Virus record (IMG/VR): IMGVR_UViG_2711768053_000014
Location: 1 to 36,325 of that record
Direction: 5' to 3' (one strand)
DNA length: 36,325 nt
From: a virus
Lineage: Duplodnaviria > Heunggongvirae > Uroviricota > Caudoviricetes
Each line of letters begins with the position of its first letter. The stretch's first letter is position 1. The notes beneath the pieces were generated by a model. The model saw only the letters and a list, made by a program, of their open reading frames with translations. It searched no databases and was not told the origin of the DNA. This document shows, in pieces, positions 8,600-35,150 of this stretch. The position numbers and the translations under genes are program-made.

Positions 8600-9660
8600 G
8601 TGGCCACCGCCTTTGTTTTCTTCGTCTTCGCTTTCATTTCCGGCATATCCAGTGATTCAGGTGGAACCAGCGCCAGAACCGTCATCCGCCCCTGTGCGCC
8701 ATCCGTCCAGGTCACCCCGGATATCAGCCAGGTGGTTTTCAGGTTCTGAATACTGTCATCAATATCAACAAGGCGGTTGGTCTGCCACAGCGGGCCGCTG
8801 TCGCCCTGTTCGCGCCAGCCTGCCACCGTGATTTCCGTCGTGCGGGCCTCTCCCAGCATCCGGGCCTTGTACCATTCCCCGCGAATGCTGGCCCCGCCCA
8901 CGGTCAGGCTGTCTTCATTAACCAGAATGCGCGGGCGGTAACGGTTAATTTCCGGGTCTTCGACGATGTACTGGCGACCGCCCACCATCGAGGCAGGCTG
9001 GCTGTCCCACAGTTTGCCACCGGCACTGGTGGTGCCTTTGATGATGTACTGGCTGTTACGCTCCCGCCAGCTGAAGCGCCCACGGGCAGCGAGGATATTT
9101 TTCCCCAGCACCAGTGACACACCCGCGCGAACGGAAGAGGCGCGGGTGATAATCAGGTTACCCGCCCCGTCAGACGTCAGCAGAACGCCGCGCTGTTTTG
9201 CCAGCCGGTCGAGCAGTTCAAACCCCGTTTCACCCTGTTCCAGAACGACGGACGCAAACGCCTCCCCGGTCGGGGTTTCCGTGATGACGGTTATCCCGAA
9301 CGGGCGGCAGACATCAGCCGCCACCTGTTCAAGCCGCACGCCTTTCCATTTCCCGGACGAATGCACCACAGAGCAGTCCACCAGGTCACCGGTTTTGTCG
9401 CGCCCCATGACACGAATCTCCACGTTATCTGCGTCATAGCTGGGAATAAAATCATCGATATACCCCGTCAGCACGGTATCCGCGCCCAGCCTGACTGTGC
9501 AGGGTTGCCCCTCACGAATCACGCGCGGTGCCGCCGCTGACCAGCGGGTTGTCACACTGAGTTCAAATTCACCGGCAATCGCCTTCAGGGAACGACTGAC
9601 GGACATTTCCGTCCAGCCTTCCCACAATTTGCCGTCAACGGTAAGAATCACGGATCCCAT
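8590..9660 (-). CDS. Tail/baseplate hub protein P (Mu gp44-like)
   Basis: 356-aa ORF immediately downstream of the N-like gene (ATGA-type overlap); Mu gene P-like by synteny and size. Confidence 0.7.
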   Translation of the reverse strand: MGSVILTVDGKLWEGWTEMSVSRSLKAIAGEFELSVTTRWSAAAPRVIREGQPCTVRLGADTVLTGYIDDFIPSYDADNVEIRVMGRDKTGDLVDCSVVHSSGKWKGVRLEQVAADVCRPFGITVITETPTGEAFASVVLEQGETGFELLDRLAKQRGVLLTSDGAGNLIITRASSVRAGVSLVLGKNILAARGRFSWRERNSQYIIKGTTSAGGKLWDSQPASMVGGRQYIVEDPEINRYRPRILVNEDSLTVGGASIRGEWYKARMLGEARTTEITVAGWREQGDSGPLWQTNRLVDIDDSIQNLKTTWLISGVTWTDGAQGRMTVLALVPPESLDMPEMKAKTKKTKAVATWD

Positions 9661-17205: not shown

Positions 17206-17286
17206 GACTCTGCCTTTTAAAAGGCAGTTAAAAGGGCATTCACAGCGCCTTTTAACTGCGGGTTACAACAGATTACGGATGACGGG

Positions 17287-18199: not shown

Positions 18200-19156
18200 T
18201 TACTCCTGTTTCGGTTTAGCGGCGAGGAACTCTTCCCCGGTAATACCCATGCTGCGACACATCGCCAGTTCGGCATCGGTCAGTGTCTGCGCGGGTTTAT
18301 CCTTGCCCTGGCTGGGCTTGTCGTTGTTCACCAGCGGCTGTGCACCTTTTGTGTACTCCGCAAACTGTTTGCGACCTTCTTCCGTGCGGCAGGTGGCAAG
18401 GAACATGTCACGGTTTGCCGGGGCCACTTTTCCGGCTTCGATGGCCGCATCCACAAGCGCTTCTGCTTCCTTCTCTTCCAGTTGCTGAAGGCGTTGTTCT
18501 GCGATTTGGGCACGGTTCAGTGCCAGATTGTGGGTTTCCACCGGCACAAACTTCGTCAGGTCAGGTGTCTGTGCGCGGTTCATCGCCACCTGCTCGCTCT
18601 CCTGAAGTTGTTTAATGGCCGCCACGGTATCGTCCACCGTGGCAGATTCAGCCAGCCCAAGCAGGCCGGTGATTTGCACAGGTACTGTCATCGGGTTTTT
18701 CTCCGTATTCAGTGCAGGAAAATCCAGGTTAGGTTTGTTGGTCAGCCCGACGCTGGACAGGCGCGTCACCACACCCTCCGCGTCATGGAAAAACGCCGGG
18801 CTGTAATAGCGGTAGCGGCGCTCACTCAGCACCCACCGGGCGGACGCGTTCCAGACAACACGGCCTTCAATGGTGCCGCCATCCGTCACCCGCAGTTCTT
18901 CCACCCAGCCATACGCCGGAGCATCTTCACCACGCGGGCCTTTAATTTCGGTGGCATGTTCAATGTCCACCGGAATTTTGATGTCGGACGAGCGGGCAAC
19001 CACCTCATGCGGATTGCGGTTAATCCACGTCCGGCCATCACGCCCGGTGAACTCACCCGCAGGAACTAGTTCAAGCCATTCCGGCAGTTGAGCGGGTGTC
19101 AGCTCAGTGATGGGTTCTGGCAGGGAAAAACACAGCGCCAGCAGTTCCGGTTGCAT
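18200..19156 (-). CDS. I: Head maturation protease/scaffold protein I
   Basis: 318-aa ORF with a coiled-coil Ala/Glu/Gln-rich C-terminal half (scaffold-like), directly upstream of the major head gene, as Mu I/Z. Confidence 0.75.
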   Translation of the reverse strand: MQPELLALCFSLPEPITELTPAQLPEWLELVPAGEFTGRDGRTWINRNPHEVVARSSDIKIPVDIEHATEIKGPRGEDAPAYGWVEELRVTDGGTIEGRVVWNASARWVLSERRYRYYSPAFFHDAEGVVTRLSSVGLTNKPNLDFPALNTEKNPMTVPVQITGLLGLAESATVDDTVAAIKQLQESEQVAMNRAQTPDLTKFVPVETHNLALNRAQIAEQRLQQLEEKEAEALVDAAIEAGKVAPANRDMFLATCRTEEGRKQFAEYTKGAQPLVNNDKPSQGKDKPAQTLTDAELAMCRSMGITGEEFLAAKPKQE

Positions 19157-19202
19157 GTCAGTCTCCGTCGTTTGGGGTTACCGACGGTCAGTATGCGGAA
19201 GG

Positions 19203-19232
19203 CAGAAAAAAAGCCGGATTTACCGGCTTCAC
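19203..19232 (-). terminator. Rho-independent terminator-like hairpin (minus strand) between F and I
   Basis: Plus strand AAAAAAAGCCGGATTTACCGGCTTCA; on the minus-strand transcript this is a GC stem (AAGCCGG/CCGGCUU) with loop UAAAU followed by U7. Coordinates ±2. Confidence 0.6.
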
Positions 19233-19369
19233 TGAAAACGGGAAGAATACCCCTTCAAAACCCCTTCAAAAACGCCACAGCGCCTTCAAAAAAGTCAGAA
19301 TGCACATTCACGCCATCAGAATAAAAAACGCGTTTCTGATGCGTTTCAGGGGGATTTGCGGCGGGAGGG

Positions 19370-20191
19370 TTACTCACTGTCAAAACGGGCCTGTTTTGTC
19401 GCCAGCTGGCGCGCCAGCGCCTGCTCACGGTTTATGCCGGGATTGTAGTTCCAGCCCGGATCAATCCCTTCCGGCACATCTTCCTCTTCGCCCGTGCGTT
19501 TGTTCACCCAGCGGACAGTTCTGATTTCCGGCGCTTCGGTATGAATGGTGCCCTGTGCCGCCAGTTGCGCATACTCACCACGGCTGACCTGACGAATGGT
19601 GCATTTGCAGCCCCAGCCGTTAGGGGCAAAATGTGTCTGCCAGAACGGGTGATCTACCGGCAGACACAGACGCGCCCATTTCACATGCTCCGCCCGGTGC
19701 TCGCGGGATGGCCCCAGCTCGTAAATCAGATACGGCATGGCCCGCTTTGTCCGTTGAATGCGTTCCCACTGGCCCGCCGCGCGGGCAGTGCGCATGTTGG
19801 TGTCAAAAATCGTGCGGAGGCGGCGGTCGCTGCCCAGTTGCACGGTGCGGGTTTCACCCGTCAGCGGATCATCCATCTCCTGTATGCCCCACCATCCGCG
19901 TTTTATCAGCAGTGGTTGCAGCGCCTCCCGGAACTCACTGAACGTCTGCCCGCTTTGCAGGGCGTCTTCCACAAGGGCTTTCACATCCGACAACAAATCC
20001 AGTTGCAGCATTTTTGCCACGGTGAAGCTGTTCCGGTGTTCTTCCCGCCACACATCCCGGTAATCAAAACCGGGGCGCAGCTTCTTCGCCTTCAGCCACG
20101 CCAGCGCCTCTTTCGGGATGAGGGTTTCACGCATGACCGGTATCTCCCAGCGCACGGGCCTTAAAGCACACCTCCGCCAGTTGCAGGGCAA
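19370..20191 (-). CDS. F: Head morphogenesis protein F (Mu F-like)
   Basis: 273-aa ORF immediately downstream of the portal gene; an alternative start at the internal Met (~20134) would reduce overlap with the portal gene. Confidence 0.7.
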   Translation of the reverse strand: MPCNWRRCALRPVRWEIPVMRETLIPKEALAWLKAKKLRPGFDYRDVWREEHRNSFTVAKMLQLDLLSDVKALVEDALQSGQTFSEFREALQPLLIKRGWWGIQEMDDPLTGETRTVQLGSDRRLRTIFDTNMRTARAAGQWERIQRTKRAMPYLIYELGPSREHRAEHVKWARLCLPVDHPFWQTHFAPNGWGCKCTIRQVSRGEYAQLAAQGTIHTEAPEIRTVRWVNKRTGEEEDVPEGIDPGWNYNPGINREQALARQLATKQARFDSE

Positions 20192-26288: not shown

Positions 26289-26885
26289 TCACCCCCGCGT
26301 GGCGGACATGATGCCCAGAGGGGTATCGATGATTTCCAGACAGGCGTCGGTCAGTTTTTCCATGCGGTTAAACCAGCCGTTCAGGTATTTACCCTGGGCG
26401 GGTTTTGACTTGATGATGTCGGCATAAAAGCGGGAACGACGGACAATGCAGCGGGCCAGCAACCAGTCCGGGGTGGACAGACTCACGGCCTTACGGGTAC
26501 GCGGGCCGATGATGCCGTCAGCATCCACATCAGCGGCTTCCTGCAAAATTCTGATGGCTTTTTTAACGCCATGCTGAACCGCTGCATCGAAAACAAACAT
26601 CGCCACGCCATCAGGCCACTGGTCACATCCGGCAGGCAGCCAGTAATCGCGCCAGTAAATCTGCGCGACCTGTTCGCGGGTTAAATCTTTGATGCGGGTA
26701 TCCGGTTTGCCGTCACCGTTGACATCGGTTTTGCCGTCAATCACACCGTCGCGGCGGTCAGAAATGCCGTATTTGGTTTCGCCGCCACGGTCAGTGGGGT
26801 CATTGACATAGACGCCTTCGATATCAGGACGCAGAATGAAATTCAGCGCATGTTCAAAGGCCGGGGAGAATTTTTGATTTTCCAT
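26289..26885 (-). CDS. Endolysin, GH108-type muramidase with PG-binding domain
   Basis: N-terminal motif ...PDIEGVYVNDPTDRGGETKYGIS... resembles the GH108 EGGY...PGGxT.YGI signature and the C-terminal ...DADGIIGPRTRKAV... resembles a peptidoglycan-binding domain (from memory); no signal peptide or SAR segment. Confidence 0.75.
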   Translation of the reverse strand: MENQKFSPAFEHALNFILRPDIEGVYVNDPTDRGGETKYGISDRRDGVIDGKTDVNGDGKPDTRIKDLTREQVAQIYWRDYWLPAGCDQWPDGVAMFVFDAAVQHGVKKAIRILQEAADVDADGIIGPRTRKAVSLSTPDWLLARCIVRRSRFYADIIKSKPAQGKYLNGWFNRMEKLTDACLEIIDTPLGIMSATRG

Positions 26886-26940
26886 AAAAGCACCTGTGAA
26901 GCAGATTTAAACGTGGTCTGCTTCATGGTGCCGGAGGCAT

Positions 26941-26968
26941 AAAAAAAGCCGGATTTACCGGCTTCATT
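26941..26968 (-). terminator. Rho-independent terminator-like hairpin (minus strand) after the mor operon
   Basis: Plus strand AAAAAAAGCCGGATTTACCGGCTTCA, identical to the element at ~19205..19230; on the minus strand a stem-loop followed by U7, about 20 nt past the stop of the 26987..27484 ORF. Confidence 0.6.
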
Positions 26969-26986
26969 GAATATCAGGTTATTGAC

Positions 26987-27484
26987 TCAGTTAACTTTAC
27001 GGGCAGAACATGTAGTCTTCATTACTGAACGTTCAATTTTTATCTTCCAGCCATTTACTGTTTTTTCGACAGGATCATCTTCAGCTTGCTTTAAATTTTC
27101 AACTTGCATGAAATTCAGTGGGGCTGGGGTATCATCGTCCCATGATGTCGGACGAACATAATCAGGGACAACAAAAGGCTCAAAAACAGTTTCACATAAA
27201 GCAGACGTCATTTGAGCAAACTCGTCGCTATCGGGGCGAACCGGTCCTGTAACATACTGCATTTTTATGTTGATTTCGTTATCTCGCACAGACGCCTTTA
27301 AATCCTGATATACACCTAAGTTAAATCCTTTAAACTCAGCAATGGCAGCGTCACCTTTACCGTACCAGTCGGTATAGTCAACGGATGTTTTTTTCTGAAA
27401 AACATCTTTGACTTTTTGCTGGAATGTATCCGCCGCTTGTACAGTAGTAACAGTTAGTAGAAGAATAAGGGGAAGATATTTCAT
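26987..27484 (-). CDS. Secreted (signal-peptide) protein of unknown function in the position of Mu late activator C
   Basis: 165-aa ORF; N-terminus MKYLPLILLLTVTTVQA|AD is a classical Sec signal peptide with an AxA site; start overlaps the mor stop (translational coupling); followed by a terminator hairpin; no similarity to the Mor/C family. Confidence 0.6.
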   Translation of the reverse strand: MKYLPLILLLTVTTVQAADTFQQKVKDVFQKKTSVDYTDWYGKGDAAIAEFKGFNLGVYQDLKASVRDNEINIKMQYVTGPVRPDSDEFAQMTSALCETVFEPFVVPDYVRPTSWDDDTPAPLNFMQVENLKQAEDDPVEKTVNGWKIKIERSVMKTTCSARKVN

Positions 27485-27882
27485 TGTTCGTCCTTAAATA
27501 GTTGCATTTGATATTTTCCACGCTCCAGTCGGCGCATTCTTTTGATGGCCTGATATACCGTTTTGTATGTCACTTTGTAACGCTGCACCAGCTCCGCTAC
27601 GTTTTTCCCATCAAAATCACGCCAGATGCGCATGTCTCTGATAAGATTTTCCAGTATTTTCCCTTTCGGAACATATACCTGAATCCCACCGATATGATTG
27701 CAAATCGCCACTACCAGCTCAAGAGAGTGGGCAGGGTTAACTCCAAGCCTTATCAGCTCCTGTCGCAACAGAGCATTCAGCTCAGCCAGTAAAGATGGAA
27801 ATCCCGATTTTTCCTGAATATCATCAAAATATTCAAGGATACTGTCGTCCTGATAATCACCAAATAAATCCTGCTCTTTCAT
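27481..27882 (-). CDS. mor: Mor/C-family transcriptional activator (middle operon regulator-like)
   Basis: 133-aa ORF; ...DLFGDYQDD...FPSLLAELNALLRQELIRLGVNPAHSLELVVAICNHIGGIQVYVP...VTYKTVYQAIKRMRR resembles Mu Mor as I recall it; located right after gemA as in Mu. Confidence 0.8.
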   Translation of the reverse strand: MKEQDLFGDYQDDSILEYFDDIQEKSGFPSLLAELNALLRQELIRLGVNPAHSLELVVAICNHIGGIQVYVPKGKILENLIRDMRIWRDFDGKNVAELVQRYKVTYKTVYQAIKRMRRLERGKYQMQLFKDEQ

Positions 27883-32260: not shown

Positions 32261-34249
32261 TTAAATGGCTCTTTTACGTCTGTTCTGTTCCAGAATATCC
32301 AGCGAATGATTCAGATATTCATCACGATCAGTTTCATATTCATCATCGGGTTCCTGGTATTTCACCTGCACCGTGTTACCGGAAGGCCGGAAAATACCAA
32401 CAACCCTTGATTCTGGTGCTGCTGGTTCGGCTATCTGCGGCAGCAGTTCAGCAACTTCCAGCGCGTCCATTTGTTTCTGCGCCTTAATGGCTGCTTTAGT
32501 TGCAGATTTCAGTTGTTTCTGGCGGCGGCGATATTCACGGCCTGCCGCAGCATCATTAAACGCAACAGGTGCCAGACATTCCGCTTCACAGATAAACCGA
32601 CCGTCCAGGGTGTAGCAATAAACCGTGCTGTGTAACTGCTGTGGATCAAACCTGACCACAACTTTTTTCACGCCGGCATTCATTAACGCCATGTTGTAAT
32701 AAACGTTTTTTGCGCCTTTAAGGGAGCCGCCAACTTTAAGCGTAAACTCGCCTTTGCGTGAAACGTTCACCGCCTCGGCAGGCAGCAACAGCATCCGTTT
32801 TTGCTCTTCGGTTGGCTTACGCACAATCGTTCTGGCGTATTCACGTTCGAAAACATCATCAAACGAAAGTTTGCCCCCGCACATTTCTGTTTCTCGGCCT
32901 GTTCTGGCATTGAACATCGCCACACCTTCGGCAAGGGTTTTCAGAAACAGCTCTGCATCAACAGCACGGTCGCCATAGTTATCAGGTTTTGCCTGCGGAT
33001 TTGGCCCCGTATATGCGCCAGCCAGTGCCGGATGCTTATCAACGTATTCCTCAAGCCCACCAACACCGAAAGCACGTTCAACAGGTTTTGCCTGGCCCCA
33101 GCCTTTACCGGCAACAACGCTTGTCCAGTGCATTTTCGCCCCCATCAGTAAAAACAGTCCTTTTGGATCGTCCTCTTTTACCTTAAAGCGGTAGCGATTG
33201 GGCGCGCCTCCCGTCAGCCATTTATTCGCTGCGCCACGGGTGTTATCAATGGTGATGTGAAAATCCTCCGGGATACCGTAGCGAGTCACAACATCCATGA
33301 ACGAGAGGCGAATTGAATCAATGTTCTCGCTCACATCGCAGCGCCAGCCCAGAATTTTTCGGGTTTTCACATCCTGCCAGAACCATGTTTTCGGGCGGAT
33401 CACATCACCGTTAAACCAGCGTACAAAGACGTTATGCAGATAACCGTCGCCGTTGATCCACTGCATGGCGTCCAGGTGTTCCACAGTTCGCTGCTGTGCC
33501 GGTATCAGATGCATCAGTGCATGTTCACCTTCACGACAGGCAACAACCATTGCCTCGTCCAGTTGCTGAATCCGGCGAAAGGCGGTGGCACGGGAGGGAA
33601 TACTCCAGCCATGCTCGCGGGCTGCCAGTTCCAGACGCTCATAACATTTGCGGAAGGCGGGTTTTTCCGGTCGCAGATAATCTGCAATCAGAAACTGCCA
33701 GGCATCCTCGTCAAATTCACTTTTGTGAACATTGCGACGGGATGCACCACGTCCATCAACAAGCGCAGCCGCCCAGTCAGGCTTCGCAAACTTCTGTACC
33801 TGGTAATACTTGTCCCGCAAAGTGGATGCGCTGACCTGGTAATGTCCTGCAACGGTCGCAAAAGCCGTTTTCGTTGAAATCCCCTGGTTCAGCATTTCGT
33901 CTGCAGCCTGAACCGCAGGCAACCATTTTTCAGCAAGTCTGCGCTGAGAATCGCTGGCTTTATCCCATTTGCTCCACAGCACCTCACGATCATAATCATG
34001 GGCTTCCAGCGTGGGGCGGGCGATTTCAAAACGCCCCTGGCTTGTTTCAATTCCCCCTTGTTGGATCAAAAACTCAGCTCGGGCAGAGTTAGGAAGAGAA
34101 GATATATGGTATTCATAAGCAACCCCTTTAATTCCTTCTCTTCTTCTCTTGAGCCATCCTTCTCTCTGTGCCCTTTTGTGAATCCCCATTAATGAACCAG
34201 GTAAACCAGATAAACCCGCACACTCAATTGCTGATATCCACTCTCTCAT
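32261..34249 (-). CDS. A: DDE transposase A (MuA)
   Basis: 662-aa ORF; N-terminal DNA-binding domain similar to the repressor N-terminus, with the central and C-terminal regions reading as Mu A from memory; follows ner. Confidence 0.95.
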
Positions 34250-34460
34250 TGTGATCCCTTAGATATCTACTAGGCCAAATTTCTTCAGGTTTCATGTTTA
34301 AGGCATCAGCAATGATACGTTCACCTTTGGGCCATGGCCTGACTAATGCATTTGCGAGTGTCCCGGTTGAATAACCCGAACGTCTGGACAGTTTTGCCAG
34401 AGGGATTCCTGTTTTTTTGAGGGCCGCAATCACGTCAGCCCGATGCCAATCGTTACTCAT
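34224..34460 (-). CDS. ner: Ner-like DNA-binding protein (negative regulator of early transcription)
   Basis: 78-aa ORF ...[12 protein letters not shown]...TLANAL...WPKGE.IIA.AL...[10 protein letters not shown] resembles Mu Ner; first gene of the early operon, upstream of A. Confidence 0.85.
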
Positions 34461-34640
34461 CTTTCACACATCAACCATATTGCGTATGATAAAGGGTTAT
34501 CAAAACAGATAATCTGTCTTGATTATCTGTTTTATACATTGTCACATAAACCAAATAAACTCAACCAGTTTATATGAGTTGATGTGATTTATTTTGTAAC
34601 ACTTTGATTTATATACATATAATTTTGGTAAACTTAGTTT
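34461..34640. promoter_or_regulatory. Divergent early/repressor promoter-operator region (candidate Pe/Pc, operators, transposition enhancer)
   Basis: AT-rich 180-bp gap between divergent ner and c; palindrome AAACAGATAATC-(6 nt)-GATTATCTGTTT at ~34503..34532; about 0.95 kb from the left end, where Mu has its operator/enhancer. Confidence 0.55.
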
Positions 34641-35150
34641 ATGAAAAGTTCAAGAGAGATAAACCAGTGGATGACGCCCAAGCAAATTACTGAACTGGAC
34701 GGAATGCCAGGAACAATACAAGGCGTGCACAAACGAGCGAAGAAAGAAGGATGGCCTAAGCGTTCGCAAGAAGGGCGTCGTGGGCCTGGGGTTGAGTATC
34801 TCCCGGTAATACCAGCTATGCAGGGAACGTCTATCGAAGAAATGAATGCTGATACATTGAAGATGTTCTCCATATTAATCAATAAATTAGGAGAAAATGA
34901 AGTCCGGGAAATAGAGCTGAATATGGCTAAATACGGGCTTTCCGGGTTAATGCATGAACGCCCCCCTATATCTGCTGATACCCTATTGGCAACGTTGGGC
35001 ATTGATCGCCAAACGCTACAAACAGCTTTGGTGCTACATACATTACCCTCAGAAGCTCGCAAAGAGATTTTGTCAAGCTATGGCGTTCATGAACAGGAAG
35101 GTCTTGTAGTTCCTTCACAGGATCCACAAGATGTAAAAAAAGCCGTATAA
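34641..35150 (+). CDS. c: Mu-type repressor c
   Basis: 169-aa ORF; N-terminus (...GMPGTIQGVHKRAKKEGWPKR...) parallels the transposase N-terminal DNA-binding domain and the C-terminus (EILSSYGVHEQEGLVVPSQDPQDVKKAV) closely matches the Mu repressor as I recall it; divergent from ner at the left end. Confidence 0.85.
   Translation: MKSSREINQWMTPKQITELDGMPGTIQGVHKRAKKEGWPKRSQEGRRGPGVEYLPVIPAMQGTSIEEMNADTLKMFSILINKLGENEVREIELNMAKYGLSGLMHERPPISADTLLATLGIDRQTLQTALVLHTLPSEARKEILSSYGVHEQEGLVVPSQDPQDVKKAV

Follow-up and report, generated by a model that had tools for sequence, protein, structure and literature searches.

Gene context and fold of the repeated element

The window, by which we mean the whole 36,325-nt stretch of DNA analyzed here, belongs to a Mu-like prophage and contains two copies of a short repeated element, each lying between genes that are, like every gene of the region, on the minus strand. 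A window search located the core, AAAAAAAGCCGGATTTACCGGCTTCA on the plus strand, exactly at 19206-19231 and at 26941-26966. Pfam and PHROG searches gave the gene order gemA, mor, orf165, element, GH108 endolysin around the lys-side copy and portal, F, element, protease I, major head protein T around the I-side copy, in agreement with an earlier sequence-only reading of this DNA, which had placed one copy between F and I and the other between a mor-coupled open reading frame and the endolysin. The two identical copies described in that reading were also found, whereas its length of 27 nt and its first coordinate needed correction, the exact core being 26 nt long and the coordinate off by one. 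The features concerned are as follows.

27481-27882, minus strand: mor (Pfam Mor, 6.6e-30)
26987-27484, minus strand: orf165, the gene between mor and the lys-side element
26941-26966, minus strand: lys-side core copy (hairpin 26945-26965, T-run 26941-26947), putative terminator of the early operon
26289-26885, minus strand: GH108 endolysin (lys), the first gene after the lys-side element
19370-20191, minus strand: F, the gene before the I-side element
19206-19231, minus strand: I-side core copy (hairpin 19210-19230, T-run 19206-19212), putative terminator of the lys-to-F operon
18200-19156, minus strand: I protease, the first gene after the I-side element

Similarity between the copies, as delimited with a repeat finder, extends beyond the core to about 43-48 nt (19189-19236 versus 26924-26971), with 81-91% identity. 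No further copy of the core with up to three mismatches was found elsewhere in the window, where shuffles expect 0, and the element recurs in related phages. A candidate third copy at 35118-35148 was rejected as a chance match, being part of the 3' end of the c-repressor-like open reading frame and forming no hairpin. Rfam families had no match anywhere in the window.

Read on the gene strand, the core is TGAAGCCGGTAAATCCGGCTTTTTTT, and both copies fold into the stem-loop GAAGCCGG-UAAAU-CCGGCUUU followed by U's. The stem has eight pairs (five of them G-C), the loop has 5 nt, the T-run is T7 and the hairpin alone reaches -12.1 kcal/mol; folding and a terminator scan, which picks up both copies, thus bear out the GC stem and U7 that had been noticed from the letters. 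Each copy has the anatomy of an intrinsic terminator, that is, a GC-rich stem-loop with a U-run directly after it, on the transcribed strand and after a stop codon. Because the plus strand has no T-run after the stem, this terminator shape is one-way, in the direction of the genes. The lys-side element begins 20 nt past the stop codon of orf165 and the I-side element 138 nt past that of F, and the T-run ends 55 nt before the ATG of lys and 49 nt before that of I, as expected from the roughly 45-55 nt proposed previously.

Several neighbouring features were also observed. The F-I intergenic region (19232-19369, minus strand) carries three direct repeats TTTT(T)GAAGG(C/G)G at about 19240-19300 and an inverted repeat CATCAGAA..TTCTGATG; this stretch is conserved upstream of I in relatives and aligns with the Mu G-I intergenic region carrying the annotated gyrase cut site (strong gyrase site), and it may be the gyrase-site equivalent, near the middle of the prophage. 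An inverted repeat at 17215-17268 follows directly after the major head gene T, where a predicted terminator is annotated in Mu; it may act in internal attenuation or in stabilising the RNA as a hairpin. The stretch 34224-35150 has the typical layout of a Mu left end in reverse orientation: a c-repressor-like gene with a Mu DNA-binding domain (34641-35150, plus strand) is divergent from ner (34224-34460, minus strand), and the gap between them contains several promoter-like sites (34463-34623).

Homology with the Mu middle promoter and the Mor activator

The middle promoter Pm of phage Mu (AF083977 9163-9233) reads cagTAAAGCCGGTTAATCCGGCTTTTTTT-acgtcctcaa-TATCCT-g, that is, a core TAAAGCCGGTTAATCCGGCTTTTTTT followed by 10 nt and TATCCT, and it can also be written, from the same record, as cagTAAAGCCGGTTAATCCGGCTTTTTTTacgtcctcaaTATCCTgtgatgA. 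Both window copies align with it in one register, in which dyad, T7, 10-nt spacer, hexamer and trailing G all correspond, and 24 of the 26 core positions are identical (26 of 26 for the loop variant of some relatives). Judged by its sequence, the element is a homologue of Mu Pm, base for base and without any shift of register. To number this register, Mu +1 was set at L078:1725, with which the published -57G and -54A fall on G and A (PMC4390567). The hairpin of Mu Pm then occupies -48..-28, the T-run -30..-24 and TATCCT -13..-8, while the Mor dyad element is located at -51..-36 and the Mor footprint at -56..-36 (PMC4287176). The Mu segment -51..-36 is AGTAAAGCCGGTTAAT, which makes up the hairpin's 5' arm together with its loop. 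In the GenBank record of Mu, a predicted terminator is placed within Pm, at 9179-9200. We take this Mu hairpin to be the early terminator t9.2. Transferred to the window, the register yields the following promoter parts.

26953-26968, minus strand: predicted Mor box of the lys promoter, AATGAAGCCGGTAAAT, aligned with Mu Pm -51..-36 (13 of 16 identical)
26925-26930, minus strand: -10-like hexamer CACCAT (lys), 10 nt past the T-run, equivalent to Mu TATCCT at -13..-8
26917, minus strand: predicted start of lys operon transcription, placed by alignment with Mu Pm +1
19218-19233, minus strand: predicted Mor box of the I promoter, AGTGAAGCCGGTAAAT, aligned with Mu Pm (14 of 16 identical)
19190-19195, minus strand: -10-like hexamer CATACT (I), at equivalent spacing
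19182, minus strand: predicted transcription start of I, by register with Mu Pm +1

The hexamers CACCAT and CATACT thus differ from the TATCCT of Mu Pm. Across 34 modules with diverged flanks, the -10 hexamer is held at a fixed distance, with an information content of 1.81 bits at its second position, 1.62 bits at its sixth and 1.68 bits at the trailing G, compared with 0.3 bits in the flanks. There is no -35, the position reading TCCGGC with one of six consensus matches; a scan reported no consensus sigma-70 promoter at the elements and no other promoter-like site before lys or I. Three details count against a promoter reading: as a -10 hexamer, CACCAT is weak; the Mor dyad published for Mu, with 5-bp repeats round a GC-rich 6-mer, is centred at -43.5, whereas the symmetry axis of the hairpin lies near -38; and the upstream 5-mer of the dyad, AGTAA in Mu, is AGTGA in the I copy and AATGA in the lys copy. 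A search of the window for more Mor boxes, for example before the tail genes, with the 16-nt box and up to three mismatches, returned two weak extra matches within coding sequence, at chance level. A mini-ORF in the spacer (ATG CCT CCG GCA CCA TGA) was considered and set aside, as it is unconserved, relatives having TGG for TGA and no start codon.

The activator that would act at these sites is encoded in the window itself. The mor product shares 64% identity with Mu Mor and 30% with Mu C, and mor is the sole gene of the Mor/C family in the window, where a tblastn search with Mu C for a second member (a C homologue) matched mor alone, at 30% identity. The beta-strand and helix-turn-helix regions, which have been implicated in DNA binding by Mor (PMC2582627), are conserved between the window protein and Mu Mor. 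The window Mor also carries an N-terminal QDLF and a C-terminal QMQLF, which match the beta-clamp-binding motifs proposed for the Mor/C family (PMC12867686).

The lys-side copy and Mu Pm are alike in lying directly after the early operon that encodes Mor. In Mu, however, Pm occurs once per genome and drives a middle operon whose product C activates the late promoters, and this middle operon with C lies between mor and lys; in the window, lys follows directly, there is no C gene, and the element occurs twice, directly before the lysis operon and directly before the head operon. The two elements also resemble the Mu late promoters Plys and PI in genomic position, before lys and before I, and in architecture, with a -10 but no -35 and an activator box at about -40 just past a terminator. 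In Mu PI, the hexamer and G (CAAACTg) are followed by an inverted repeat ACTGCTCA...TGAGCAG that reaches the ribosome site. The Mu late promoters carry a C box, TTAT-N5-6-ATAA (PMC12867686), which on direct reading is present in neither window element. Because there is neither a C gene nor such a box, the element falls outside the class of C-dependent late promoters of Mu. The sequence-only reading, in which the likeness to Mu Pm had gone unrecognised, described the downstream genes as Mu late operons; in Mu these depend on C, and the sites here are of the Mor (Pm) type. With one Mor orthologue and no C, Mor probably drives both late operons directly, and a two-step cascade in which Mor itself activates the late operons is probably the simplest reading.

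Conservation in relatives and leader hairpins

Related loci were first gathered with the exact core as probe (L001-L061). Core invariance in this set is circular, because the exact core was the probe, and 80 loci were therefore collected via Mor homology alone (Mor 62-99% identity); together with Mu, these provide the only unbiased comparison. The element was found at the end of the early operon in every Mor-ascertained locus with enough downstream DNA. In C-less phages this boundary element lies directly 5' of the GH108 lysin, and in Mu-type phages it is Pm; the lys and I element sites are syntenic across all relatives. At the early/late boundary we found six sequence variants, all with an intact hairpin (-9.5 to -12.9 kcal/mol) and T7. 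Before I there are 16 variants, which range from intact, as in the window, to forms in which the 3' arm has become CCACC and the T-run is gone, the most decayed having -1.6 kcal/mol and 2-3 T. All 16 I variants nevertheless keep GAAnnCGGTwAATC and the -10 hexamer (e.g. CACACT), and identity between the lys copy and the I copy within single phages peaks around -47..-34. The core of the predicted Mor box is conserved in every relative.

Since the 5' arm, loop and -10 survive in I copies that have lost the 3' arm and T-run, what the two positions share is the function of a Mor box and promoter. The terminator would then be a second, overlaid function, strict where early transcription must stop and optional between late operons. 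Both window copies are of the complete terminator form.

Some I copies without a U-run (in L071, L091/L092, L108 and L075/L076/L106) keep the complementarity of the arms through changes on both arms, as in AAACCGG/CCGGTTT and GAAAGCGG/CCACTTTC. Such two-sided changes are not predicted by a model with a Mor box only and hint at a constraint at the level of RNA or of symmetry. In a number of Mu-type phages that have C (L110, L111, L118, L122, L125 and L126), the first gene behind Pm is a GH108 lysin homologue that shares 74-75% identity with the endolysin of the window and precedes C and the Mu-type SAR endolysin; these loci look like an intermediate between the C-less arrangement and Mu.

The sequence between each element and its downstream gene can form a further hairpin, over the ribosome site.

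26883-26935, minus strand: lys read-through leader hairpin, 5' strand CCGGCACC-AU-GAAGCAGA, 3' strand UCUGCUUC-ACA-GGUGC
19165-19187, minus strand: I leader hairpin CCGUCG/CGACGG, overlapping the GGAG Shine-Dalgarno of I

In the lys leader, the 5' strand covers the promoter spacer, the -10 and the discriminator, and the 3' strand covers the Shine-Dalgarno. The leader hairpins were scored by per-sequence folding against shuffles. The read-through lys leader of the window reaches -22.8 kcal/mol (z -3.58), and none of 200 shuffles folds as well; taken from the predicted start, the leader reaches only -5.7 kcal/mol (z -0.38). The I leader of the window folds weakly (z -0.66, not significant). Its fold is stronger in relatives, and its hairpin is conserved chiefly as sequence, with one covarying pair.

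Every lineage has an inverted repeat directly past the -10 hexamer, of different sequence in each, the 3' strand of which reaches the Shine-Dalgarno or the AUG. Averaged over 15 non-redundant lys lineages, the leader z is -4.1, and over nine I lineages it is -3.3. The number of pairs spanning the inferred start is 7-20 overall, with 12-20 in the lys lineages and 7-14 in those of I. Of the 17 nucleotides of the ribosome-binding site and AUG, 7-14 are paired with the segment before the start, compared with 2.0-5.7 in shuffles. MAFFT and RNAalifold gave no consensus for column-wise covariation in the lys leader, because the lineages pair in different registers.

As the predicted start lies inside or at the end of the 5' strand in the Mu +1 register, the hairpin would form only in RNA arriving from upstream. 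A precedent exists in phage T4, where, for genes e and soc and for I-TevI, a stable hairpin over the ribosome-binding site occurs only in upstream-started transcripts, the late promoter lies inside the hairpin and late transcripts are open (PMC2988022). The window differs from the T4 cases in that the 5' strand is the activator-dependent promoter's own spacer and -10, right after a terminator. We tentatively propose, while regarding the case as somewhat short of evenly balanced, that a boundary device of three layers (terminator, Mor restart and a hairpin occluding the ribosome-binding site) is conserved across enterobacterial Mu-like phages, including at Mu PI. If this were true, leaked RNA would be translationally silent and only Mor-initiated RNA would make endolysin or head protease, and the rebuilding of the hairpin in each lineage with new sequences and registers would point to strong selection on gating.

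A proposed boundary module and its alternatives

The explanation that we favour, and consider quite likely, is that the element is a boundary module in which an intrinsic terminator is overlaid on a Mor-dependent promoter of the Pm type, supplemented by gating of the leader. From the sequence and its folds, from Mu Pm homology and from the patterns of conservation we infer Mor binding, transcription starts, termination in vivo and translational gating, which would operate as follows. At the RNA level, the hairpin and its U's would stop transcription arriving from the early operon, which ends with orf165, or from the lys-to-F operon. At the DNA level, the 5' arm and loop of the same hairpin would be the Mor binding box, equivalent to Mu Pm -51..-36, and Mor binding is predicted to need GAAGCCGGTAAATCC and not the 3' arm or T-run. 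With the T-run as spacer, the -10 a further 10 bp on and no -35, this would make a Mor-dependent sigma-70 promoter of the Pm type, at which transcription would restart about 24 nt past the T-run, at about 26917 for lys and about 19182 for I. Mor would in this way switch on the late operons directly, in two steps versus the three of Mu. The promoter spacer, -10 and discriminator would also encode the 5' strand of the leader hairpin over the ribosome-binding site, and because that hairpin is expected only in read-through RNA, leaked transcripts would be poorly translated and Mor-initiated ones open.

The strongest competitor, which we nonetheless regard as unlikely, is a pure Mor-dependent promoter used twice, without useful termination, in which the hairpin shape is incidental, the T-run acts as a spacer or bending element and the dyad is explained by the binding of a dimeric or tetrameric activator to a symmetric site. 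This would fit the report that Mu bases just downstream of the Mor dyad are critical for activation (PMC2582627), the binding of Mor/C proteins as symmetric oligomers over about 26 bp (bioRxiv 10.1101/2025.05.02.651988) and the symmetry-preserving double changes in some I copies. However, many relatives have I promoters without the 3' arm and T-run, so that a promoter on which the same Mor acts can do without them. Both nevertheless stay unchanged at every early/late boundary, as would be expected if termination were under selection there. The elements also have the standard make-up of a terminator, closely following a stop codon and oriented with transcription, and the homologous Mu hairpin is annotated as a predicted terminator.

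A duplicated intrinsic terminator and nothing more, with the downstream operons served by read-through or other promoters and the identity of the copies due to recent duplication or gene conversion, appears improbable to us. The terminator anatomy is clean, the identity over 26 nt and the 81-91% over 43-48 nt are as for a recent copy, and an unrelated genome has a single exact 26-mer that looks like an ordinary terminator (L001, described below). A terminator, however, does not need an invariant loop and 5' arm, and these are kept even in copies without a hairpin or U-run; nor does it account for a -10 hexamer held at fixed spacing, for the homology of the whole unit with an experimentally defined Mor-dependent promoter, Mu Pm, or for the lack of any other promoter-like site before lys or I. 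The sequence-only reading had left the choice between a duplicated terminator and a combined module of terminator and promoter or activator site; Mu Pm homology, -10 spacing and the relatives support the module, and its terminator part is retained as the overlaid function, given the sequence features and the invariance of hairpin and T7 at the early/late boundary.

We also examined the distribution of the element in genome collections. The exact 26-mer occurs in four genomes in a scan of one genome each of 185,579 species: Raoultella and Kluyvera (two matches each, on one contig), Pluralibacter and one metagenome-assembled genome. The downstream flanks and first open reading frames of these matches fit the lys or I context, except for the metagenome match. 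In a viral collection, 55 stretches contain the 26-mer, typically two per contig. The prophage is present in 59 of 5,426 complete Escherichia coli genomes (~1%), at 90-97% identity, and a 34-nt probe against the same 5,426 genomes gave matches of at least 95% in 52 records only; the inspected E. coli matches (H46 and the 59 carrier genomes) are this Mu-like prophage. A weaker match of 88% in 731 E. coli records is one unrelated map-glnD intergenic terminator per genome. In the metagenome-assembled genome, assigned to Ignavibacteriaceae, the exact 26-mer (L001 929-954) is flanked by an HDOD-domain gene and queA. Its surroundings are those of an ordinary terminator, without phage genes and without a -10 hexamer at the spacing seen in Pm, and it is probably a case of convergence among short GC-stem terminators in a 596-Gb database. 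That a dispersed REP/MITE-like repeat of host or mobile origin happened to insert at two intergenic sites, as a short, palindromic element in two identical copies might suggest, is hardly credible: neither the species scan, with its four genomes, nor the E. coli genomes, with 52 records at 95% or above, revealed many scattered copies independent of the prophage, the sites are syntenic in relatives, and the common host-derived repeat envisaged earlier as an alternative was thus not found.

Regarding the boundary module, a literature search of limited extent found no description of such a scheme for C-less Mu-like prophages. What is new is that a second copy stands before I, that late operons would be served by a promoter of the Pm type and that natural variation separates the Mor box from the terminator; the translational gate is possibly new as well. 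The module provides a transcription map for a Mu-like prophage, with one early operon, two Mor-dependent late operons and predicted start and stop points, which covers the prophage in about 1% of complete E. coli genomes and its relatives in Raoultella, Kluyvera and Pluralibacter. The variation among copies acts as a mutational scan, in which GAAnnCGGTwAATC (Mu -48..-35) is the unchangeable part and can be compared with the new structures of Mor with RNA polymerase. The module would also mean that a promoter of the Pm type can serve as a late promoter, and that the Mor-to-C-to-late cascade of Mu is therefore one step longer than that of these relatives.
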